Below are positions 1 through 10,936 of a stretch of 29,070 bases of DNA, one piece after another. The number at the start of each line of letters is the position of its first letter. The stretch's first letter is position 1. Where the stretch lies: the UHGV virus genome UHGV-1360357, one strand, 5' to 3'. A model generated the notes under the pieces. It searched no databases. It saw nothing but the letters and a program-made list of their open reading frames with translations, and was not told the origin of the DNA. The DNA comes from a virus. A program made the translations under genes and the position numbers.

Positions 1-42
1 CAGAAGCAACGCGGAAAATCAATTCCAGCTTATTACGATTGA
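1..42 (+). CDS. 3' end of an upstream early-operon ORF (partial, last 13 codons, stop TGA at 40-42)
   Basis: Open frame running into the window from the left and ending at TGA 40-42; GAGGTGA Shine-Dalgarno for the next ORF overlaps its end. Confidence 0.25.
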   Translation, partial: QKQRGKSIPAYYD

Positions 43-50
43 GGTGAGCC

Positions 51-188
51 ATGCTCAAGAAAGTCAAACGCCGACTTTACAAAGAAGGTAGATATTCATG
101 CCAGTTGCCAAAATGCGACACAACAAAATGGAGTGTCGATGATTGGTGTAACTGGATAGATAGATACGGAACTTGGTGGAATAAATAA
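51..188 (+). CDS. small Cys-rich hypothetical protein (45 aa)
   Basis: ATG at 51 preceded by GAGGTGA RBS; 45 codons to TAA at 186-188; contains four Cys (C-x4-C ... C ... W-rich), possible metal-binding peptide. Not in the >=60 aa ORF track. Confidence 0.4.
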   Translation: MLKKVKRRLYKEGRYSCQLPKCDTTKWSVDDWCNWIDRYGTWWNK

Positions 189-242
189 CAGGTAACTTAA
201 GCGTATTTACTTTCGAAGCAAACAACTTATTTGAGGTGATAT

Positions 243-692
243 ATGGAAGAACAAGCAAACAAGATTCTCGTAGAACTACTGAAAAAAGCCAGTAATGGAA
301 TAGACGCGGCTGTTTCATTTAGCCAGGCACAGATTCCTGATGTTGTTCATCAGTTGCTGCTATGGAATATGGTTGACAGTCTGATTAAAACATTAATGGC
401 CATTCTAACAATCCCACTGGTTTTCTGGTTTATGAAGAAGCAGTGCCAAAGAGTTGAGACAGGTAAAATCGGTGATGAAGGATATTCATGGGAGAAAGGA
501 AATCACAAATACAGGCCGACAATGGTTTGGGATAGCAAAGGTGATATTAATCTTCTTATCATGCCATTGGTTGTAGTTTTGACTCTGTGGGGGATTTTTA
601 TTATTGGTGTAGTAACCAATATGACTTGGTTAAAAATTTGGCTGGCCCCAAAGCTTTACCTTATCGAATATGCAGCATCATTGGTTAAGTAA
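243..692 (+). CDS. hypothetical membrane protein (149 aa, two hydrophobic helices)
   Basis: ATG 243 with GAGGTGA RBS; two long hydrophobic stretches (LIKTLMAILTIPLVFWF and LLIMPLVVVLTLWGIFIIGVV) suggest inner membrane localisation; followed by a hairpin terminator. Confidence 0.6.
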   Translation: MEEQANKILVELLKKASNGIDAAVSFSQAQIPDVVHQLLLWNMVDSLIKTLMAILTIPLVFWFMKKQCQRVETGKIGDEGYSWEKGNHKYRPTMVWDSKGDINLLIMPLVVVLTLWGIFIIGVVTNMTWLKIWLAPKLYLIEYAASLVK

Positions 693-696
693 TTTC

Positions 697-722
697 AGGC
701 CGCATAGTCGGCCTTTATTTTT
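697..722 (+). terminator. hairpin plus T-run, putative intrinsic terminator
   Basis: AGGCCG-catagt-CGGCCT stem-loop followed by TTTATTTTT directly after the stop of the 149-aa ORF. Confidence 0.5.
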
Positions 723-744
723 GGCATAAACAACAGAGGTGGAT

Positions 745-1023
745 ATGAAAGAGTTTAAGGGTACGCCTGGTAAATGGAAGTACACGGTTAGAAACGTCAA
801 CGAGATGATGACTACGTTCCATGGTGTGACGATTGGTGACACATACATTGAAGCAGCAACAAGAAATGAAAGGGAGGATGCGCTACTGATAGCAGCAGCT
901 CCTGATTTGCTTGAAGCACTGCAAGAGCTTGTCTTCATTTACGAGCATGACGAAGGGTGCAGAGAGTTAACCGAATACAAACGAGCCAAGGCAGCCATCA
1001 GCAAGGCTCTTGGGGAAGAATGA
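745..1023 (+). CDS. hypothetical protein (92 aa) with Ea22-like IAAAPDLLEAL motif
   Basis: ATG 745 with AGAGGTGG RBS (the track ORF starts at an upstream GTG at 739); the IAAAPDLLEALQEL segment resembles the conserved AxEFIAAAxPAxVLALLDELE segment of the Ea22-like ORF at 5191. Confidence 0.55.
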   Translation: MKEFKGTPGKWKYTVRNVNEMMTTFHGVTIGDTYIEAATRNEREDALLIAAAPDLLEALQELVFIYEHDEGCRELTEYKRAKAAISKALGEE

Positions 1024-1181
1024 TGAATAAGAAATACATTGTTGAAGTTATAGAGCGAGAAACGAAAGAAGTAATTAAACATTTCGAATTTGATAATTAT
1101 AGAAAAGCTGACCGCGTAGAAGAAGGATTGTTGCGACAAAGTAATCTCGAAAAATTTGATGTTGTCATGCGATGCGAATAA
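1020..1181 (+). CDS. hypothetical small protein (53 aa)
   Basis: ATGATG at 1020 overlapping the upstream stop (ATGA coupling), GGGGAAGAA RBS; charged, no hydrophobic segment. Confidence 0.4.
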   Translation: MMNKKYIVEVIERETKEVIKHFEFDNYRKADRVEEGLLRQSNLEKFDVVMRCE

Positions 1182-1272
1182 GCACCTATAGCAGATTTGC
1201 GAGTCTGCTATGTGAGCAATGTCGCTCGTAACTAAACAGGAGTCGACTTGTTCTGATTATTGGAAATCTTCT

Positions 1273-1302
1273 TTGCCCTCCAGTGTGAGGGCAATTTTTT
1301 TT
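1273..1302 (+). terminator. strong hairpin plus T8 intrinsic terminator
   Basis: TTGCCCTC-cagtgt-GAGGGCAA stem-loop followed by TTTTTTTT, immediately upstream of a GGAGG RBS and ATG 1315. Confidence 0.6.
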
Positions 1303-1314
1303 GATGGAGGAATT

Positions 1315-1731
1315 ATGGAAATTACAGATATTCTGGTTAATCCAGATAATTACGACCAATTCAATATCTCTACTCAATCAGTTGATTTGGGTTGTGCAAC
1401 TGTCAGCGCATGGCTACTTAATGGTAAACAGTTGGATAAATGCCTTGATGCACATATGACGGTTAACAGCTTCCTTGCAGAAAAAACACACTGGCAAGAT
1501 GCTGGAGGGAAATATGCTGGATGGCTTGAAAGCATGGGATTTGAATATCAATCTGATGAAGGTTGGTGGAGCCTTATAGCTGTAACGCCTGAGACAATAG
1601 AATGCTTCGTTAAATACTCAAACGACGATGACTATAAACACCAGGTGGATTCTGCGATAGAAAGATACAAAAGAAAATCGTTCAGCCACGAAATATCATC
1701 AGTTCTTGATTTCATAGAAATCTTCAAATAA
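1315..1731 (+). CDS. hypothetical protein (138 aa), candidate early accessory gene
   Basis: ATG 1315 with GGAGG RBS 5 nt upstream; the longer track ORF from 1219 would read through the terminator hairpin, so the internal start is preferred. Confidence 0.55.
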   Translation: MEITDILVNPDNYDQFNISTQSVDLGCATVSAWLLNGKQLDKCLDAHMTVNSFLAEKTHWQDAGGKYAGWLESMGFEYQSDEGWWSLIAVTPETIECFVKYSNDDDYKHQVDSAIERYKRKSFSHEISSVLDFIEIFK

Positions 1732-1814
1732 GCCGCCAAGCGCGGCTTTACCGCATACCAATAACGCTTCACTTGAGGCGTTTTCGTTATGCAATCAAAC
1801 AGAAGGAGCATCCT

Positions 1815-1985
1815 ATGCAACAGTTCGCTATTGCAGGGGCGGCATCGGTTCGCCCTTTCAACCCAATTTTATCGGTGCAGCATTCACGAAAAAACATTTT
1901 AACCGGAGCAGACTTTAAACAACCAAGAATGAAAAGTTTGCTCGAAAAGCTTTGGGATATTTTGAAACAACAAGGCCGCCCATGA
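1815..1985 (+). CDS. small protein (56 aa) with lambda CIII-like termini (possible FtsH-inhibitor family)
   Basis: ATG 1815 with AAGGAG RBS; N-terminus MQQFAIAG and C-terminal SLLEKLWDILKQQG resemble lambda CIII (MQYAIAG ... ESLLERI ... IDILNQPG) as recalled from memory; position upstream of the recombination genes fits the cIII/kil slot. Confidence 0.35.
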   Translation: MQQFAIAGAASVRPFNPILSVQHSRKNILTGADFKQPRMKSLLEKLWDILKQQGRP

Positions 1986-2140
1986 GTTTTACAGATAACT
2001 GGTCAGACGAAGAATTCATTCTTCAGATGAAAGAATTAATCGGTAACGAAGGAGATATTCATGTCACTTGCAACCACAGTGAAGGAGAGCAAGTTACAGA
2101 GACGCATGTACACGCAGAAAGCTCTCTGGTATCGCCATAA
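1982..2140 (+). CDS. hypothetical small acidic protein (52 aa), at the kil-like position
   Basis: ATG 1982 overlapping the upstream stop (ATGA); 52 codons; no recognisable domain. Confidence 0.35.
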   Translation: MSFTDNWSDEEFILQMKELIGNEGDIHVTCNHSEGEQVTETHVHAESSLVSP

Positions 2141-2239
2141 TGGCGACCGCGAAGGAATGCGGGTATGCCTTAATTTGTCCCGAGTCGAAGTATTAAATCA
2201 GCGTTATTTCCTTGGGCCGTGTCCATTCTGAGGTGAATT

Positions 2240-2947
2240 ATGGATTTGAATAAATTCGATGAGCCATTCAGCCCTGAAGATATCGAATGGCGAATACAGC
2301 AAAGCGGTAAAACACGCGATGGCAAAGTGTGGGCTATGGTGCTGGCTTATGTCACGAACCGGGCAATCATGAAACGCCTGGACGATGTTTGCGGCAAAGC
2401 AGGATGGCGCAATGAATACCGCGATATTCCCAACAACGGCGGAGTTGAATGCGGCATATCAATCAAAATTGATTCCGAATGGGTAACCAAATGGGATGCT
2501 GCTGAAAACACGCAAGTAGAAGCCGTCAAAGGTGGTCGTTCCGGTGCAATGAAGCGCGCTGCCGTTCAATGGGGAATCGGTCGGTATCTGTATAACCTTG
2601 AGGAAGGTTTCGCACAAACATCTCTCGATAAAAAGCAGGGGTGGCACAGGGCAAAACTGAAGGATGGAACAGGGTTTTACTGGCTCCCTCCAACGCTGCC
2701 CGGCTGGGCAATCCCAGCATCAGATAACAAACCATCACCAGAAAATACCAACCAGAAATCTCCATCGGTTGACTGCGAACAAATCCTGAAAGACTTCAGC
2801 GATTATGCATCGAAAGAAACTGATAAGAAAAAACTCATCGAGCGTTATCAGCGTGACTGGCAATTAATGGCTGGAAACGAGGAGGCGCAGGCTAAATGCG
2901 TTCAGGTAATGAACATCAGAGTTAACGAGCTAAAACAGGCGGCATAA
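2240..2947 (+). CDS. Rad52/22-family single-strand annealing protein (phage recombinase)
   Basis: GAGGTGA RBS; 235 aa; contains the Rad52-family signature region KGGRSGAMKRAAVQWGIGRYLY. Confidence 0.85.
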   Translation: MDLNKFDEPFSPEDIEWRIQQSGKTRDGKVWAMVLAYVTNRAIMKRLDDVCGKAGWRNEYRDIPNNGGVECGISIKIDSEWVTKWDAAENTQVEAVKGGRSGAMKRAAVQWGIGRYLYNLEEGFAQTSLDKKQGWHRAKLKDGTGFYWLPPTLPGWAIPASDNKPSPENTNQKSPSVDCEQILKDFSDYASKETDKKKLIERYQRDWQLMAGNEEAQAKCVQVMNIRVNELKQAA

Positions 2948-3463
2948 ATGGCAAGCAGAGGCGTAAATAAGGTGATCATTATTGGTCGCCTTGGGCATGA
3001 TCCAGAAATCAGATATTCACCATCAGGAACGGCATTTGCAAACCTTACAGTTGCTACGTCAGAACAATGGCGTGATAAGCAAACTGGAGAGCAAAAGGAG
3101 CAGACGGAGTGGCACCGCGTGGTAATGAGCGGGAAACTGGCAGAAATTGCCAGCGAATATCTGCGAAAAGGCTCTGAGGTTTATCTTGAAGGAAAATTGC
3201 GGACAAGAAAATGGCAGGATCAAAGCGGACAGGATCGGTTCACTACTGAAGTCATCGTGGGCGTTGGTGGAACTATGCAAATGATTGGTGGCAAGCAAGG
3301 AGGCAATGAACAGTCTTCACCTCAGCGAAATGACGGTCAGCAACAAAGACAACAACCTCAGCAGCAAGGGAATCACAGCGAACCACCTATGGATTTTGAC
3401 GACGATATCCCCTTTGCACCAGTAACTCTCCCTTTCCCTCGTCACGCTATTCACGCAATTTAA
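2948..3463 (+). CDS. ssb: single-stranded DNA-binding protein
   Basis: N-terminal OB fold ([23 protein letters not shown]...), Gly/Gln-rich linker and acidic C-terminal tail ending DDDIPF, typical of bacterial/phage SSB; start ATG adjacent to the annealase stop. Confidence 0.9.
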
Positions 3464-3471
3464 GGACTTAC

Positions 3472-4020
3472 ATGAATCACTTGATGGTTGACCTTGAAAC
3501 AATGGGCAACGGGCCATACGCGCCAGTTATTTCTGTTGGGGCGGTATTCTTTGACCCGAATACCGGAGAAACAGGAGAAGAGTTCTCGGTAAATATCTCG
3601 CTTGAGTCATCAATGCGATATCGGGCGCGTCCTGACGCTTCAACGATTTTATGGTGGCTGGAACAGAGTGAAGAAGCCAGAAAATCGCTAACCAGCAACA
3701 CTCAAGAGCTTTCAACGGCTCTTTCATGGTTATCTGAATTCATCATAAAGAACGCCAACCACAAACTCGTTCAGGTTTGGGGGAATGGAGCATCATTTGA
3801 CTGCGTTATTCTCCGCAACAGTTATTCGCTGACAGGGAAGCCAGTTCCGTGGCAGTGGTGGAATGACCGCGACGTAAGAACAATCGTCGAACTTGGGAAG
3901 GTAATAGGATTCGATCCTAAGCGAGATATGCCATTCAAAGGAACTCGCCACAACGCGCTTGATGATGCCATCCACCAAGCCAAATACGTTTCAGCGATCT
4001 GGAAAAAGTTAGCTAAATAA
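3472..4020 (+). CDS. DnaQ-like DEDDh 3'-5' exonuclease
   Basis: Exo I motif VDLETMG, Exo II GNGASFDCVIL, Exo III HNALDDAIHQAKY; 182 aa; AAGGA RBS. Confidence 0.85.
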   Translation: MNHLMVDLETMGNGPYAPVISVGAVFFDPNTGETGEEFSVNISLESSMRYRARPDASTILWWLEQSEEARKSLTSNTQELSTALSWLSEFIIKNANHKLVQVWGNGASFDCVILRNSYSLTGKPVPWQWWNDRDVRTIVELGKVIGFDPKRDMPFKGTRHNALDDAIHQAKYVSAIWKKLAK

Positions 4021-4037
4021 TCAACAGGAGAAAAACC

Positions 4038-4331
4038 ATGCCAGCGCCTCTGTATGGTGCGGATGACCCGCGCCGCTGTTCCGGCAATTCCGTATCGGAG
4101 GTGCTGGATAAATTCAGAAAAAACTACGATCGAATAATGTCTCTACCACAGGAAACGAAAGAGGAAAAGGAATTTCGCCACTGTATATGGCTTGCAGAGA
4201 AAGAAGAACGAGAGCGAATTTACCAGACATCAATCCGACCATTCCGCAAAGCCACATATACCCACTTCCCTGAAATTGACCCGCGCCTACGTAATTACCG
4301 CTCACGCTATGGCGCTATCAGTAATGACTGA
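4038..4331 (+). CDS. hypothetical protein (97 aa)
   Basis: ATG 4038 with AGGAG RBS; basic/acidic mixed small protein. Confidence 0.5.
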
Positions 4332-4341
4332 GGAATTTACC

Positions 4342-4506
4342 ATGAGAGGACTTGCATACAATCCCGGCACTCTTCCGGCAGAAATGATTATTCGCCAACG
4401 CATAAAGCCAATGCCATCGAGAGAGGAATTGCTTAAGAGAAATTCTTTTCCTTCAGTGAATCAAAACAAATATCTGAATGCGATGTGGCGGAGTGGGAAG
4501 AAATGA
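4342..4506 (+). CDS. hypothetical small protein (54 aa; alternative start 4324)
   Basis: In-frame ATG 4342 preceded by GAGGAA; the track ORF from 4192 overlaps the previous gene and was trimmed; stop overlaps the next start (ATGA). Confidence 0.3.
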
Positions 4507-4949
4507 AACAAATATCACTAATTGAGATGGATGGTTTTCTGAAAGGTAAATGCATCCCACGAGATTTAAAGGTTAACGAAACAAATGCTGAATATCTGGT
4601 GCGTAAATTTGCTGAAGCTGAGGCCAAGTGCGCGGCACTGGCGGTGGAGAATGCGGGAATAAAGTCTGCAATTCCTCAACTACGGGATATTGATGCTGAC
4701 AATGACAATATGGATGACGTATCTCTTGCTGAAGACTTCGGATTCAATCATGCAATAGAACGGATGAGGAGACAGATACCTGAAACCCCAGCCACCGATG
4801 CTTTTCTGGCTGAAGTGCGGGCGCAGGGTGTGGATTCAGCGATTAACACAGTCATTGCGATGATGAACCATCAGCATCCTGTCACATCGAAGGCAATCGA
4901 CATAATGCGCGTCCATGCCTACCAAATTCGCAAAGGAGTGCAGTCATGA
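4503..4949 (+). CDS. hypothetical protein (148 aa), early-region accessory protein
   Basis: ATG 4503 with GGAG...GAAGAA upstream and overlapping the previous stop; Ala/Glu-rich helical sequence. Confidence 0.55.
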
Positions 4950-5194
4950 GTACTCGTCGCAAAATTAACAAAATTCTGAAAGAGAAAGGCCTGACGGCTA
5001 ATGTCGAGTACGACGGAAGCGGTGCCGGTAGAGATGAATATGGTTGGTGGACCGTTACTTTCGAACCGGCATCTGCTGATTTTATTCGTCTTAAGCTGAA
5101 TGAGCCCGAATTCACTGGCTCGATAGAATTTTGCGAACTCGAAGATGGGTTTGAGCAGCTTTCGGAGTTACCCGCAGTGGAGGCCGCCCAATGA
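4946..5194 (+). CDS. hypothetical protein (82 aa)
   Basis: ATG 4946 overlapping the previous stop, AAGGAG RBS. Confidence 0.55.
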   Translation: MSTRRKINKILKEKGLTANVEYDGSGAGRDEYGWWTVTFEPASADFIRLKLNEPEFTGSIEFCELEDGFEQLSELPAVEAAQ

Positions 5195-5715
5195 GCAACA
5201 TCGACAAACAGGTGCTGCGTGAAAAGGCAGAGAAAGCAACGAGTGGTGTGTGGTCGCTCGAATATGGAGAGGAGAGATTTGATGCTGGTGATGCGCTAAT
5301 TCATCGTGAAGTTGTTGGATATCTTCCCATTTGCAGAATTGAAGGAGCGCATCCTGAAAGCGGTTTCGATGAAGATTTCCAAATGGAACAGCAGGCCAAT
5401 GCTGAATTCATCGCCGCAGCCAGTCCGGCTACTGTGCTGGCGCTGCTGGATGAGCTGGAGAAGATGCAGGCGCAATCGTCCAAATGGTGCGAAGCCTTCC
5501 ATAAAGCCGTTTCCGTTGGCGCTCGGTATGAGGAGCGGATTGCTGAACTGGAGGCTCGGGAGCAGAAGAATTTAGCGGAGGAGCGCCAACGTGTGATTGA
5601 TGGTCTTTGCACTATCGGTGAAACGGCGTGGGAAATTGAGGAGTACATGAAAGAATGGGACGCAAAGCACCCGCATGAAGCGGCCACCGCTGGCATTGGC
5701 GTGAAGGGGGAGTGA
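5191..5715 (+). CDS. Ead/Ea22-like protein
   Basis: 174 aa; contains the characteristic EQQANAEFIAAASPATVLALLDELEKMQ segment of the lambdoid Ea22-like family; GGAGG RBS, ATGA overlap. Confidence 0.7.
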   Translation: MSNIDKQVLREKAEKATSGVWSLEYGEERFDAGDALIHREVVGYLPICRIEGAHPESGFDEDFQMEQQANAEFIAAASPATVLALLDELEKMQAQSSKWCEAFHKAVSVGARYEERIAELEAREQKNLAEERQRVIDGLCTIGETAWEIEEYMKEWDAKHPHEAATAGIGVKGE

Positions 5716-5716
5716 G

Positions 5717-5917
5717 ATGGCTACCGTAACAGAAATTCGAGCAAAGCTGCGTGCCGGTGAAGTAGTGATTATGCCGGGGAATTCTGTATTCCTGTTCATG
5801 AGTGAATGCGAGCGCCACCTGGAAGGTGATGAATGCTACCACATCGAACCTCACTCTCATGGGTACTCAAAAGTTTTCGACCCTAAGCGGGCGAAAGGAG
5901 AACACCATGACAACTAA
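5717..5917 (+). CDS. hypothetical small protein (66 aa)
   Basis: ATG 5717 with GGGGGAG RBS; Cys/His-containing (C-x-R-H ... C-Y-H ... H-S-H). Confidence 0.5.
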   Translation: MATVTEIRAKLRAGEVVIMPGNSVFLFMSECERHLEGDECYHIEPHSHGYSKVFDPKRAKGEHHDN

Positions 5918-6434
5918 CAACCACCCGGCGCACGGCCCTGTATCACTCGATCGCCTGCACCAGATACGCGAAGTACTCAGCAAAGCAGCAGCACAAAGCG
6001 ACGGCGGTAATCTCGGCTACGCAATGGCTGATGCTGTCAAGGTGATTGATAAGGCTATTGCTGCGTTTAATGCGGAGCTTTATGTTCCTACCGTTCAGTG
6101 CTGGTCATGCAGAGAGGTTATTGAAGTTTCCGCAGTAGGTGACTGTGATGGTTATTGCCCGAAATGCGACTCGCCAATTGATCTCGATGAAGAGCCATAC
6201 GATGCCGCCATACTTCAGGCTGGCAACTCTCCGGTGATTCCGGATGGTTGGATAAGCTGTAGTGAGCGAATGCCGGATAAGTTAATTCCGGTAATGGTCA
6301 TGTATGAAGACGGTGAGATGTGGTCTGCAATGTGGAATGGCAATCGCTGGGATGATGGCACCGAATATCCGGATCCGCACTCAGTTACGCACTGGCGTGA
6401 AATGCCAGCAGCACCACAGCAGGAGGTGAAGTGA
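5907..6434 (+). CDS. DUF551-like protein with CxxC...CxxC zinc-ribbon (175 aa)
   Basis: ATG 5907 with AAAGGAGAA RBS (the track start at 5802 is an upstream alternative start overlapping the previous ORF); zinc ribbon CWSC...CPKC; C-terminal WISCSERMPD...HWREMP resembles the DUF551 domain common in lambdoid early regions. Confidence 0.65.
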   Translation: MTTNNHPAHGPVSLDRLHQIREVLSKAAAQSDGGNLGYAMADAVKVIDKAIAAFNAELYVPTVQCWSCREVIEVSAVGDCDGYCPKCDSPIDLDEEPYDAAILQAGNSPVIPDGWISCSERMPDKLIPVMVMYEDGEMWSAMWNGNRWDDGTEYPDPHSVTHWREMPAAPQQEVK

Positions 6435-6712
6435 TGTACTCCTTCGCGAAATATACGATTATTGACTGGATAGCCTTCCTTCAGGTTTTGCTCATCTGGT
6501 TTTATATGGCTTACAGGAGTGGACAGTGGATTGTCAGTGTATCCTGTAGCAAGGGATGGCGTTGGTGGAACCGAAAGAATAAAAAAGCGCTGGCCTTGGA
6601 TTCGTTTTACGAAGCATTCAATCTTAACAGTCTTCAGCCTGGTTCTGTCATTGTAGTCACCACTCAAAGCGGCATGACCATTCAGATTCATAAACCAAAA
6701 GAGGAAAAATGA
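6434..6712 (+). CDS. hypothetical protein (92 aa) with N-terminal hydrophobic segment
   Basis: ATG 6434 seven nt after AGGAGG; hydrophobic N-terminus (IIDWIAFLQVLLIWFYMAY). Confidence 0.45.
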   Translation: MYSFAKYTIIDWIAFLQVLLIWFYMAYRSGQWIVSVSCSKGWRWWNRKNKKALALDSFYEAFNLNSLQPGSVIVVTTQSGMTIQIHKPKEEK

Positions 6713-6798
6713 TGTGGCCTATATGTGTTAATTGCGGACGGATGTGCCTATCTGGATGGTGCCGAAAGTGCGACAAATGCACGAAGAAAAGACAATAA
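6709..6798 (+). CDS. 29-aa Cys-rich micro-protein (MMWPICVNCGRMCLSGWCRKCDKCTKKRQ)
   Basis: ATG overlapping the upstream stop, AAGAGGAAAA RBS; six Cys in 29 residues (CxxC, CxxxC, CxxC spacing). Confidence 0.3.
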   Translation: MMWPICVNCGRMCLSGWCRKCDKCTKKRQ

Positions 6799-6857
6799 CA
6801 ATCCTCGCACTCGCGGGGATTTCTTTTATCTGAACTCGCTACGGCGGGTTTTGTTTT

Positions 6858-7169
6858 ATGGAGATGATTATGGTCTGTTCAACATTCAACCATCTAACGT
6901 TACAGAAATACCAGCCGGACCCTGAAGATTTATGCTCACTGTGTGGCGGAAATCATGGTAAAGCCGCCATGATCGAATGTAAGGACAAAATCCACATTTG
7001 CCTTAATTGCGTTGATGTCCTCGTTGATATCAAAAATGAGAGAGAAGATAAAAAGCGTAGCGAGGCTGTTCGCGCCTTAGATTCATGGATGCGGGATGGA
7101 TATAGTGCCGCGCAAATTTATGACTTAGCAATATCAAAAGGCGAAATACCAGGAGTACGCATCGAATAA
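6858..7169 (+). CDS. hypothetical zinc-finger protein (about 100 aa; likely start 6864-6870)
   Basis: CSLCGG ... CLNC Cys pairs; GGAG 6 nt upstream of ATG 6870; last gene before xis. Confidence 0.5.
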   Translation: MEMIMVCSTFNHLTLQKYQPDPEDLCSLCGGNHGKAAMIECKDKIHICLNCVDVLVDIKNEREDKKRSEAVRALDSWMRDGYSAAQIYDLAISKGEIPGVRIE

Positions 7170-7210
7170 GACGTAACCAATATTCGAATTGAAGAACTGA
7201 AAGAAAACCA

Positions 7211-7233
7211 AGCCGCCTGATGGCGGTTTTTTC
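7211..7233 (+). terminator. hairpin plus T6, putative intrinsic terminator upstream of xis
   Basis: GCCGCC-tgat-GGCGG(T) stem followed by TTTTTT. Confidence 0.45.
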
Positions 7234-7247
7234 TTGCGTGTAATTGC
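7234..7247 (+). promoter_or_regulatory. cII-type activator box TTGC-N6-TTGC (PI-like int promoter -35 region)
   Basis: TTGCgtgtaaTTGC directly upstream of the xis start, matching the TTGC-N6-TTGC CII recognition pattern known for lambda PI/PRE/PaQ. Confidence 0.5.
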
Positions 7248-7259
7248 GGAGACTTTGCG

Positions 7260-7478
7260 ATGTACTTGACACTTCAGGAGTGGAACGCACGCCAACGACG
7301 CCCAAGAAGCCTTGAAACAGTTCGTCGATGGGTACGCGAGTGCAGGATATTCCCTCATCCGGTTAAGGATGGAAGAGAGTATCTGTTCCACGAATCAGCG
7401 GTAAAGGTTGACTTAAATCGACCAGTAACAGGTAGCCTTTTGAAGAGGATCAGAAATGGGAAGAAGGCGAAGTCATGA
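7260..7478 (+). CDS. xis: excisionase Xis (lambda-type)
   Basis: 72 aa, MYLTLQEWNARQRRPRSLETVRRWVRECRIFPHPVKDGREYLFHESAVKVDL..., recognised as lambda Xis; overlaps the int start as in lambda. Confidence 0.9.
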   Translation: MYLTLQEWNARQRRPRSLETVRRWVRECRIFPHPVKDGREYLFHESAVKVDLNRPVTGSLLKRIRNGKKAKS

Positions 7479-8526
7479 GCGCCGGGATTTACCCCCTAAC
7501 CTTTATATAAGAAACAATGGATATTACTGCTACAGGGACCCAAGGACGGGTAAAGAGTTTGGATTAGGCCGAGACAGGCGAATCGCAATCACTGAAGCTA
7601 TACAGGCCAACATTGAGTTATTTTCAGGACACAAACACAAGCCTCTGACAGCGAGAATCAACAGTGATAATTCCGTTACGTTACATTCATGGCTTGATCG
7701 CTACGAAAAAATCCTGGCCAGCAGAGTAATCAAGCAGAAGACACTCATAAATTACATGAGCAAAATTAAAGCAATAAGGAGGGGTCTGCCTGATGCTCCA
7801 CTTGAAGACATCACCACAAAAGAAATTGCGGCAATGCTCAATGGATACATAGACGAGGGCAAGGCGGCGTCAGCCAAGTTAATCAGATCAACACTGAGCG
7901 ATGCATTCCGAGAGGCAATAGCTGAAGGCCATATAACAACAAACCCTGTCGCTGCCACTCGCGCAGCAAAATCAGAGGTAAGGAGATCAAGACTTACGGC
8001 TGACGAATACCTGAAAATTTATCAAGCAGCAGAATCATCACCATGTTGGCTCAGACTTGCAATGGAACTGGCTGTTGTTACCGGGCAACGAGTTGGTGAT
8101 TTATGCGAAATGAAGTGGTCTGATATCGTAGATGGATATCTTTATGTCGAGCAAAGCAAAACAGGCGTAAAAATTGCCATCCCAACAGCATTGCATGTTG
8201 ATGCTCTCGGAATATCAATGAAGGAAACACTTGATAAATGCAAAGAGATTCTTGGCGGAGAAACCATAATTGCATCTACTCGTCGCGAACCGCTTTCATC
8301 CGGCACAGTATCAAGGTATTTTATGCGCGCACGAAAAGCATCAGGTCTTTCCTTCGAAGGGGATCCGCCTACCTTTCACGAGTTGCGCAGTTTGTCTGCA
8401 AGACTCTATGAGAAGCAGATAAGCGATAAGTTTGCTCAACATCTTCTCGGGCATAAGTCGGACACCATGGCATCACAGTATCGTGATGACAGAGGCAGGG
8501 AGTGGGACAAAATTGAAATCAAATAA
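7456..8526 (+). CDS. int: tyrosine integrase Int (lambda-type)
   Basis: 356 aa; N-terminal arm-binding domain MGRRRSHERRDLPPNLYIRNNGYYCYRDPRTGKEFGLGRDRR, catalytic region with the conserved R...H-x-x-R...Y residues (HELRSLSARL, LLGHKSDTMASQY); recognised as lambda Int. Confidence 0.95.
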   Translation: MGRRRSHERRDLPPNLYIRNNGYYCYRDPRTGKEFGLGRDRRIAITEAIQANIELFSGHKHKPLTARINSDNSVTLHSWLDRYEKILASRVIKQKTLINYMSKIKAIRRGLPDAPLEDITTKEIAAMLNGYIDEGKAASAKLIRSTLSDAFREAIAEGHITTNPVAATRAAKSEVRRSRLTADEYLKIYQAAESSPCWLRLAMELAVVTGQRVGDLCEMKWSDIVDGYLYVEQSKTGVKIAIPTALHVDALGISMKETLDKCKEILGGETIIASTRREPLSSGTVSRYFMRARKASGLSFEGDPPTFHELRSLSARLYEKQISDKFAQHLLGHKSDTMASQYRDDRGREWDKIEIK

Positions 8527-8989: not shown

Positions 8990-10936
8990 TTAAAGAATAA
9001 TTCTTTCAACCTTCCAAGTTGCAGATCTACTTCCTGAAATTCCAACTCCATTTGAATCTTTGAGAAGAATTCTAAATGATGTTTCTGTTACCAAATCATA
9101 CGTTGCATTTATTGCTGCGCCATCTCCTATCGATATTGAGATAAAATCAGGCACAACTCCAAGTCCGTGAGTTATTATTTGTCCATTTGAATAAACCCCA
9201 GTTCCTATTTTAGTCGTTGCATACCCGGCATTGTTTGCAAGGACAACATTAACCGAATTTGCTCCTAATTTAGCAATCTTCCTATCAGATGAAATCTCTG
9301 TAGATTGTATTGCATTATTTGAAATAACTGCATCTTTTATAGCCCTGAAATCTCCAGGTGTTCCTGATACAGCATTAACAAGTATTGCATACTGCATACT
9401 TCTATCACTTCTTTTATTGCCGAAAGCATTACCGCAAATTGTTGTCCCGGTAAATCCAGATGCTCCCGTGTTATCAAGAAGAATTCCGCACCTATATGTA
9501 TTTGATGTATCAGAAGGCAAACCTATACCTCTTATGGAATTATTGGATACTATATTATTATCTGGCTTGACATTTGCATTATTGCAGTAAATGCGAATTC
9601 CAACATCACAAAATGCATCTAATACATTATCAGATATAACATTACCCGCTCCCCACACATCAATACCCATAAACGAATCAGCACCATCTCCAAAAAATTT
9701 ATTTTGAGTAACTATTGTTCCGCTACCCCTAATCAATATAGCAGGCCTTGGAATGCTTGAAGTCTTTTTGCTATCATTGTAGCCATGATTATCGTTTATA
9801 TGAGATTCCCCCCCCGCACTATCTATGCAGCAATTACACGAATCTATTATATTTTTATTTATCCTTACATAGACAGAATCGTGTTTTATACCTGTAATAA
9901 AATTTGATATGGAATTTGATACAAAACTAGTTGCCTTACATGGCAATGAAACGCCATGTATAGCGTCCTTAGACGCTCCTATGGCAACAAAATGTATCCC
10001 TGTAACAATTGCTGGGTTCTCATTAGATGATGTGTCACCTATGGTAATAGCAAAAGAATTCTCATCTTCAGGACCATCAATTGTTAATATCGTTTGTGGC
10101 GTATATCCTTGAGATATTTGCGATCCATTTCCTGAACCAAACCCTCTCATACTTACAAAAGATGGGATTCTTAGTTTTTCTGTTACTCTACAGTTGCCCC
10201 CCCAAAAAAATTCCTCTTTAACATGGGCAGCGGCCAGCATGATTGGAATTGTATCATCTTTAACTCCATCAAGCGTCGCTCCATAATTTCTAAGGTCATT
10301 GGTTTCATACCCATTTAAATAACCAATACATCTCCATCCTGTTGAGGTATATCTGGCAAATTTATCATCTGGGGGAACAGTAAAAGGAGGAACTGTCATT
10401 TCTCCTCCAGTTATTTCATTTTCATATACCCAAAACAACCCATCATAATCTTTGATTGCGCATCGGTTGTCTCGAATGATATTTTGCTTGTCATAGTTCC
10501 CACAATATGAAAAACCAGTTGCTAATTTCTGTAGATTTGTTCCTGATGCTGAGTTTATTAATGATGCGCCATTTTCGCTAGTTAATACATTATTTAGAGG
10601 GTCAGGATCATACTTCAGCACATTAGGAAAATAGAACTGCTGCGCACCGTACGCATCATAAACAGCCATAGAATGGCCTTGCACGGTTACGAATTTGGCA
10701 ATCTGTCCGTTATATGCAGGATACCCGCCAGCGTTAATGATGATTGGCTGTGCAACAGGAACGTGAGAACCGTCTTCATTCTCTACATAAACCTGAATCT
10801 GGTTTTCAGGATTTACCGGGTCAGTGTCAATTTTTCCGATATAAATTTTGCCATTGGCAACCGCTTTAAAAGAACGCGCCATAGTGAAGAGTTGCGAAGG
10901 CATGCTTACCACAACATTTGCGGTGATATCTGTCAT
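8990..10936 (-). CDS. tailspike protein (P22 gp9 family; conserved head-binding domain, divergent receptor-binding beta-helix)
   Basis: 648 aa; first ~115 residues ([58 protein letters not shown]...) match the P22/HK620-type tailspike head-binding domain; the rest is Asn/Gly/Ser-rich with beta-helix-like repeats but unrelated to the P22 endorhamnosidase domain. Confidence 0.9.

Follow-up and report, generated by a model that had tools for sequence, protein, structure and literature searches.

The virus genome UHGV-1360357, analysed here over a window of 29,070 nt, carries a compact recombination locus in which genes for an annealase, a single-stranded DNA-binding protein (SSB), a DnaQ-like exonuclease and a homologue of the anti-RecBCD protein Abc2 of phage P22 follow one another on the same strand. 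Judged by homology, it is an Abc2-dependent recombination (Rec) module of a P22-like temperate phage of Escherichia coli and not one of the lambda Red or RecET type. The first three genes and their tight packing had been described in a first-pass annotation made from the sequence alone, and both are borne out by Pfam matches, by AlphaFold folds and by gaps of 0 and 8 nt. The annealase stop and SSB start codons abut (TAA-ATG, positions 2945-2950), the 8-nt spacer separates SSB and exonuclease, and Abc2 starts 17 nt after the exonuclease stop, with AGGAG ahead of its ATG. All four genes lie in one run of same-direction genes (positions 1-8526, + strand), which is the early-left (PL) operon of a lambdoid phage. 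The annealase-SSB-exonuclease-Abc2 block is predicted to be co-transcribed: a consensus scan of the + strand found the stretch 2015-4879 free of promoter-like sites and the stretch 1782-6061 free of terminator-like ones. The recombination unit exceeds positions 2240-4020, to which the first-pass annotation was confined, and extends from two small open reading frames (ORFs) at 1982-2231 through Abc2.

The first gene is predicted to encode a single-strand annealing protein (SAP) of the Rad52/Sak type. Residues 4-136 match PF04098 (Rad52_Rad22; E-value 4.9e-26, 91.9 bits against a cut-off of 20.3), a domain found in all 120 listed annealase homologues, and the GIGRYLY motif occupies residues 112-118 (positions 2573-2593). 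The protein comprises an N-terminal Rad52/Sak-type domain (residues ~4-150), a disordered linker (163-175) and a three-helix C-terminal domain (157-235, positions 2708-2944). When the AlphaFold2 model (predicted local distance difference test, pLDDT, 86) was compared with the PDB by Foldseek, the 16 best matches were all Mgm101 or the N-domain of human RAD52 (probability 0.99-1.0), with modest template-modelling (TM) scores of 0.26-0.39 over the full-length model. The C-terminal 79 residues are 62% identical to the C-terminus of P22 Erf (E 1e-29). In related loci this domain is portable and is found on Rad52-type, Erf-type and Sak4-type annealing domains and on one of an unassigned type, which suggests a common docking partner; Erf domain swaps of such kind were pointed out in the epsilon34 genome paper (2008). 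The module appears to be a variant of the P22 kind, with a Rad52-type annealing domain, an Erf-like C-terminal domain only, and neither Abc1 nor Arf.

The SSB matches PF00436 over its OB domain (E 1.6e-38) and the E. coli SSB structure 1EQQ (E 3e-65). The OB domain is followed by a Q/G/P-rich linker and an acidic tip, DFDDDIPF (residues 149-156 of 171, positions 3392-3415). The DDDIPF motif that had been read as the tail of the protein is present, but it is not C-terminal: 15 residues follow (157-171; codons at 3416-3460, to 3463), and the final position of full-length NCBIfam SSB profiles (e.g., NF006533, TIGR00621) falls at residue 156. The extension is the same as the C-terminal end of the HNH endonuclease of phage CurroJimenez_Bas106 (Bas106), and its DNA matches the final 42 nt of the Bas106 HNH ORF. 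It is best described as a putative in-frame remnant (scar) of a deleted free-standing HNH endonuclease gene; the stretch 3416-3463 may be compared with related loci L001 (7983-8472) and L060 (6980-7003). In some modules the SSB ends in IPF-stop right before the exonuclease, with an identical TAAGGA junction. The simplest history would be an HNH insertion at the SSB stop codon and a later internal in-frame deletion. We dropped the idea of an ancestral extension, with HNH inserted into the SSB, as less parsimonious, because that junction is shared by the IPF-stop modules and the extension is identical with the 3' end of HNH.

Four configurations exist among the relatives: SSB-HNH-exonuclease-Abc2, SSB-HNH-Abc2, SSB(scar)-exonuclease-Abc2 and SSB(scar)-Abc2. 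Most of the SSB ORFs sampled (49 of 67) are of the scarred allele, which is present also in modules without the exonuclease. In E. coli, the partner proteins of SSB recognise the free carboxylate of its terminal Phe. The scarred SSB, with its acidic tip internal and masked by the HNH-derived extension, would therefore be a poor competitor for host SSB-interacting proteins; such competition, raised in the first-pass annotation, is weakened as an idea and we regard it as unlikely. The masked tail is also a caution against assuming that phage SSBs engage these host proteins.

The third gene product is predicted to be a DEDDh (DnaQ-like) exonuclease closest to DexA of phage T4, after which we assign it 3'-5' polarity. 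It matches the full profile of PF16473 (Rv2179c-like; E 3.6e-72, 242 bits against a cut-off of 27); NCBIfam holds no models for this protein, the annealase or Abc2. The catalytic residues are D7 (3490-3492), E9 (3496-3498), D110 (3799-3801), H160 (3949-3951) and D165 (3964-3966); among 51 homologues, E9 is kept in at least 90% and the other four are invariant. T4 DexA is the closest PDB match both by sequence (8KEL/8KEN, phmmer E 7e-14) and for the AlphaFold2 model (pLDDT 93; Foldseek best match 8KEN/8KEL, E 1e-12, TM 0.80), followed in Foldseek by RNase T, REXO2, Orn and RNase AS. DexA is a 3'-5' DNA exonuclease that prefers single-stranded (ss) over double-stranded (ds) DNA and contributes to intron homing, a double-strand-break repair recombination (cited in Kang et al. 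2025).

Two further functions were weighed against these assignments. We consider it highly improbable that the enzyme acts on RNA, like Rv2179c/RNase AS, or that its gene, with no function in the module, is carried along neutrally by mosaic exchange. An exoribonuclease gave the Pfam family its name, RNase T, Orn and REXO2 are the next-best folds, and the gene is facultative among otherwise identical modules; however, sequence and structure alike place the protein nearest to a DNA exonuclease, and the place after SSB survives swaps of annealase and SSB type. The second possibility is an HREX-like nuclease of inter-phage competition or defence, directed against the hydroxymethylcytosine (5hmC) DNA of co-infecting T-even phages and without a recombination role. 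EcD, an E. coli DexA homologue without the tetramerisation residue Asp90, is inactive on plain dsDNA, digests T4 DNA and, when plasmid-borne, protects cells from T4 (Kang et al. 2025). The window protein is likewise a short DexA homologue: in the HMMER alignment Ala83 or a gap stands at Asp90, and Trp130 and Asp148, as we read that alignment, fall near DexA Trp152 and Asp169, close to the proposed 5hmC-recognition positions. We nevertheless hold a defence function to be unlikely. The EcD result rests on overexpression, and EcD differs in sequence, its primers giving a MIDTET start (found in none of 179 protein sequences checked) where the window protein begins MNHLMVDLET; the EcD reverse-primer sequence had 0 matches in viral contigs, and the comparison stays indirect. 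A PADLOC search for defence systems returned a single weak, generic DEDDh match (E 6e-4). Finally, the PL operon of lambdoid phages is repressed in lysogens, and with no promoter-like site of its own in the consensus scan the exonuclease would not be expressed where defence is needed.

Abc2 of the window is 94% identical to that of P22 and matches PDB 8B1T at E 2.2e-58; it retains Pro68, which is thought to dock in host PpiB. Abc2 is a RecC-binding protein that co-opts RecBCD of the host (Wilkinson et al. 2022, PMC9836394). In the working model for P22 from the same study, co-opted RecBCD makes ssDNA and probably loads the phage annealase in place of RecA, and phages with Abc2 are without an exonuclease because RecBCD has been co-opted. 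In agreement with this model, no gene for a 5'-3' exonuclease (YqaJ/lambda Exo or RecE PD-(D/E)XK) was found in the window or in 80 related loci, 7 kb to each side. A tblastn search of the window and of the complete genome of phage mEp235 (98-99% identity to the window in annealase, exonuclease and Abc2) with lambda Exo, Bet and Gam, Rac RecE and RecT, and P22 Abc1 and Arf gave best E-values of 0.15-0.35, with none below 0.35 for Exo, RecE and Gam, and the annotation of mEp235 (37.6 kb) lists neither a 5'-3' exonuclease nor Gam. The first-pass annotation was thus right that none accompanies the annealase, and the search beyond the window that it proposed found none in the complete mEp235 genome with the same cassette. 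On this model the phage enzyme is missing because Abc2 lets host RecBCD supply resection, and its absence is the normal state of an Abc2-type module. The puzzle of the missing 5'-3' exonuclease is largely answered by Abc2, which had been overlooked; the other question of the first-pass annotation, why a 3'-5' exonuclease is present, stands.

The genomic setting agrees with that of P22 (Table 1). A cIII homologue places the recombination module, just downstream of it, within the PL operon, and the gene order matches P22 c3-kil-arf-erf-abc1-abc2. The slot of kil/arf, between cIII and the annealase, is filled by the two small ORFs, which overlap in different frames; 71 of 79 loci retrieved with Abc2 hold a homologue of the 56-aa one. 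Neither ORF resembles P22 Arf by BLAST, and the candidate assignment of the ORF at 2061-2231 as Arf was dropped, as it gave no alignment and belongs to phrog_1723 instead. Also dropped was a common docking peptide in the '...EAA' C-termini of many operon proteins, because GAGGCGGCATAA-type gene ends encode the ribosome-binding site of the next gene. The integrase gene is followed by a gap of ~460 nt, presumably attP, and then by P22-like virion genes on the - strand (8527-29070). These code for a P22-like tailspike, injection proteins, portal and terminase, closest to those of CUS-3, Sf101 and Kapi1. The gene order is that of the phage (non-integrated) form, and the late genes point to a P22-like temperate podophage of E. 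coli, with headful packaging implied.

Table 1 Features of the recombination locus in the window and of exonuclease relatives outside the cassette (L numbers denote related loci)
Feature	Location	Strand	Match or context
cIII homologue	1773..1985	+	phrog_550 CIII, E 1.9e-22
Small ORF, 52 aa	1982-2140	+	phrog_2123 (E 1e-40), PHROGs label 'recombinase'
Small ORF, 56 aa	2061-2231	+	phrog_1723 (E 9e-36), PHROGs label 'recombinase'
Predicted annealase, Rad52/Sak-type with Erf C-terminal domain	2240..2947	+	Pfam PF04098
Bacterial-type SSB	2948..3463	+	Pfam PF00436
Predicted DEDDh 3'-5' exonuclease, Rv2179c/T4 DexA family	3472..4020	+	Pfam PF16473
Abc2 (anti-RecBCD protein 2)	4038..4331	+	Pfam PF11043, E 6.1e-64
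Ead/Ea22- and DUF551-type genes	between Abc2 and xis	+	gene run 1-8526 of the window
xis, then lambda-type integrase	up to 8526; integrase 7456-8526	+	
Tailspike	8990-10936	-	P22-like
LLS gene 34 ('DnaQ-like exonuclease')	L093 8760-9332		last gene before xis/int
ST64B sb30	L254 4476-5045		last gene before xis/int
mEp460 gp26	L253 6010-6582		last gene before xis/int
RecE-N::DEDDh fusions	L082 5015-7561; L091 3501-5972 (Citrobacter phage Chris1); L092 2973-5414; L089 2085-4552		

The conservation of gene neighbourhoods was surveyed in 80 IMG/VR loci holding exonuclease relatives at 60-99% identity. An SSB gene lies directly upstream of the exonuclease in ~70 of the 80, in some of them with a free-standing HNH gene between, and Abc2 or a divergent Abc2 (phrog_656) lies directly downstream in ~70. 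The annealase of these loci is of Rad52 type in 56, of Sak4 type in eight and of Erf type in five, and the SSB is either bacterial-type or the HK620-type SSB-2. In a few loci small proteins without recognisable Abc2 likeness (73, 97 and 131 aa) follow the exonuclease (L079 7528-7923, L066 7575-7796, L074 7568-7861); two of them, from their Abc2-like '...GGA(S/I)R(S/Q)(D/E)' tails, may be very divergent Abc2. In a separate set of 79 loci retrieved with Abc2, 9 of the 28 with an SSB and none of the 51 without carry the exonuclease (Fisher p 3e-5). Of 80 loci retrieved with lambda Gam (71 with Exo, 76 with Bet) none has it, compared with 9 of the 79 Abc2 loci (p 0.0014); both p-values are indicative only, as the samples are the 80 most similar loci per query, many of them near-identical prophages, and shared ancestry is uncorrected.

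Relatives of the exonuclease are found outside the cassette as well. A sister group of ~60% identity stands alone beside xis/int in phages LLS, ST64B, phiNP and mEp460. LLS was placed in a group without Rec modules, with ST64B and phiNP as its closest relatives; its growth is aided by host RecBCD and its genome is unusually Chi-rich (Zheng et al. 2025). No Rec-module gene was found in the early-left operon of mEp460. Altogether, this distribution hints that the exonuclease goes with phages that leave RecBCD active. The operons of LLS, ST64B and mEp460 that hold the exonuclease also hold a predicted deoxynucleoside monophosphate (dNMP) phosphatase and DUF2303/yfdQ. In Rhodobacter phage RcMcLean (L086 3222-4597) a 47%-identical homologue comes after an Enc34-type ssDNA-binding protein, and this pair lies between a Cas4-family exonuclease and a DNA polymerase. 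In Vibrio phage 1.106.O (L255 3501-4652) a distant homologue directly follows a bacterial-type SSB and is itself followed by nucleotide-metabolism genes. Proofreading is plausible for the distant homologue beside the polymerase in RcMcLean, but was dropped for the present phage, because mEp235, which has the same cassette, encodes no DNA polymerase, its only replication proteins being O-like and DnaB-like.

These contexts also bear on a role in clean-up or salvage, in which the enzyme would turn ssDNA and oligonucleotide products of RecBCD into mononucleotides, for supply or against host sensing or CRISPR adaptation. The documented role of DexA is the scavenging of host DNA, with ssDNA preferred, and the clade was found in our samples only with RecBCD-active strategies; the dNMP phosphatase in the operons of LLS, ST64B and mEp460 and the nucleotide-metabolism genes of phage 1.106.O also fit. 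To our knowledge, temperate lambdoid phages do not degrade host DNA, the part on CRISPR adaptation is speculation, and salvage leaves the tight adjacency to SSB and the fusion to the RecE N-terminal region, described below, unexplained. We think this role quite unlikely.

The fusion is seen in proteins of 820-850 aa, annotated as 'exodeoxyribonuclease VIII', that over their first ~530 residues share homology with the N-terminal region of Rac RecE (32% identity over 304 aa, E 2e-35; Pfam Exonuc_VIII), and in which a C-terminal DexA-like DEDDh domain replaces the PD-(D/E)XK 5'-3' nuclease of RecE. Their genes lie just ahead of xis/int, with annealase, SSB and Abc2 absent nearby. The joining of the RecE N-terminal region to a DEDDh domain in place of the 5'-3' nuclease supports a recombination role. 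It could also be read in favour of primary resection by the exonuclease, as in poxviruses: the enzyme would chew 3' strands at dsDNA ends, SSB would coat the 5' tails and the Rad52-type protein would anneal them, independently of RecBCD. The 3'-5' exonuclease of Vaccinia E9 and the I3 SSB together bring about recombination by single-strand annealing, both in vitro and in vivo, the strict pairing of SSB and exonuclease fits, and the DEDDh domain of the fusions occupies the place of the resection nuclease of RecE. Primary resection is nevertheless very unlikely in our view: DexA acts less strongly on dsDNA than on ssDNA and EcD showed no activity towards plain dsDNA, the near-constant company of Abc2 implies that RecBCD is used, and Sf6-type modules have the same annealase and SSB without the exonuclease.

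Our best inference is that the exonuclease may be an SSB-coupled trimmer of 3' ssDNA ends, which would assist RecBCD-dependent annealing. From homology to characterised proteins, Abc2 would bind RecC, so that host RecBCD and not a phage exonuclease would unwind and resect DNA ends; SSB would coat the ssDNA made by RecBCD, and the Rad52-fold protein would anneal it, so that, e.g., headful-packaged DNA with its terminal redundancy could circularise and concatemers could form. The annealase probably joins the Abc2 pathway via its Erf-type C-terminal domain. SSB and the DexA-like exonuclease would form an optional two-gene sub-cassette, in which the exonuclease would act on the 3' ends of SSB-coated ssDNA as a phage counterpart of host Exonuclease I (ExoI). 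RecBCD binds flush ends, and in E. coli 3' tails hinder reloading of the helicase unless 3'-5' ssDNA exonucleases remove them. Trimming of 3' tails by the phage enzyme would allow RecBCD-Abc2 to load on near-flush ends; as a second possible action, it may cut back 3' flaps left unpaired by annealing and so ready the joints for extension or ligation.

We favour 3' trimming because the exonuclease persistently follows ssDNA-binding proteins of three unrelated kinds (bacterial SSB, HK620-type SSB-2 and Enc34-type), because in our samples it is restricted to phages keeping RecBCD active, because DexA prefers ssDNA and has a cited role in intron homing, and because 3' tails block RecBCD reloading in E. 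coli unless trimmed. Several points, besides the shared ancestry within the samples, weigh against it. 3'-5' ssDNA exonucleases normally destroy the recombinogenic 3' tail, and their presence in such modules was called curious (Zheng et al. 2025). P22, HK620 and Sf6 have Abc2 modules without the exonuclease, which is therefore dispensable for the core reaction. The sister clade is found also outside Rec modules, beside xis/int, so that the function of the exonuclease need not be tied to recombination. Loading of the annealase by Abc2 is a model rather than a demonstrated step (PMC9836394), and our literature searches found no functional study of the nuclease or of homologues in Rec modules. 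On balance, we give an even chance to the description of the locus as an Abc2-dependent module with SSB and the DexA-like exonuclease as an optional 3'-end-processing sub-cassette. A wider proposal is more doubtful, though not far-fetched: SSB and exonuclease might be a portable two-gene 3'-end-processing unit carried specifically by temperate phages that leave RecBCD active, whether it is then hijacked by Abc2 or, in phages of the LLS type, exploited through Chi. The exonuclease would then be an ExoI analogue making phage ends loadable for RecBCD, or the bacterial counterpart of the poxvirus reaction, and the RecE-N::DEDDh fusions would package that activity in a third way.

The arrangement is not new: it was described for epsilon34 in 2008, in the genome paper that already called the nuclease unusual, and again by Zheng et al. 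2025, who catalogued 13 functional Rec-module types, reported 'DnaQ-like 3'-to-5' nucleases' in lambdoid Rec modules and accepted the epsilon34 gene as a legitimate member. The same cassette is annotated in mEp235, mEpX2 and Bas106 (97-99% protein identity in these three) and in epsilon34, g341c and NM-3, and clustering at 90% identity puts each of the four proteins in a group of >1000 members, drawn from assemblies of E. coli and Salmonella. The cassette is thus already known and catalogued, in sequenced and cultivable phages (mEp235 and Bas106 both grow on E. coli K-12), and it matters little as a discovery. What it offers is a small question, namely why a 3'-5' exonuclease expected to destroy recombinogenic 3' tails is retained in some phage recombination modules. 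An answer would clarify how Abc2-type phages exploit RecBCD and could improve recombineering toolkits built on annealase/SSB pairs.

Compared with known systems, the window is closest to the Rec modules of epsilon34, g341c, mEp235, mEpX2 and Bas106, which have the same genes in the same order (SAP-SSB-DnaQ-Abc2 type, Zheng et al. 2025). The annealase, exonuclease and Abc2 of mEp235 and Bas106 are 97-99% identical to those of the window, and the exonuclease and Abc2 pair of epsilon34 is ~88% identical; mEp235 has a more divergent SSB allele (~72% identical), and in Bas106 the HNH gene that separates SSB from exonuclease is intact, where the window retains no more than the 15-codon scar. T4 DexA shares the DEDDh catalytic set and is implicated in homing-type double-strand-break repair, but it is only ~25% identical and belongs to a lytic phage, without annealase, SSB or Abc2 neighbours. 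The window enzyme is 45 residues shorter (182 against 227 aa) and gapped at the DexA insertions, including the Asp90 position linked to tetramer formation (Kang et al. 2025). E. coli ExoI (SbcB), a DEDDh 3'-5' exonuclease for ssDNA that acts on SSB-coated DNA, is a comparison of working only, the two being non-orthologous. ExoI interacts with the SSB tail, whereas the tip of the window SSB is masked and binding of the phage exonuclease to the tail is hypothetical. Vaccinia E9 exonuclease with the I3 SSB is a precedent for annealing driven by a 3'-5' exonuclease and an SSB, with no homology implied; it differs in that the exonuclease lies within the replicative polymerase, with a separate annealase and RecBCD not involved.

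The lambda Red (Exo-Bet-Gam) and Rac RecET modules are, like that of the window, centred on an annealase and occupy the same operon position, but they pair it with a 5'-3' dsDNA exonuclease, and lambda Gam blocks RecBCD; none of these genes is found in the window. The P22 module, arf-erf-abc1-abc2, shares with it the position after cIII/kil, Abc2 (94%), the annealase C-terminal domain and the lack of a phage 5'-3' exonuclease. It differs in having an Erf-type annealing domain together with Abc1 and Arf, while the window has a Rad52/Sak-type domain and neither of these two proteins, and the slot of P22 abc1 is taken by SSB and the DexA-like exonuclease.

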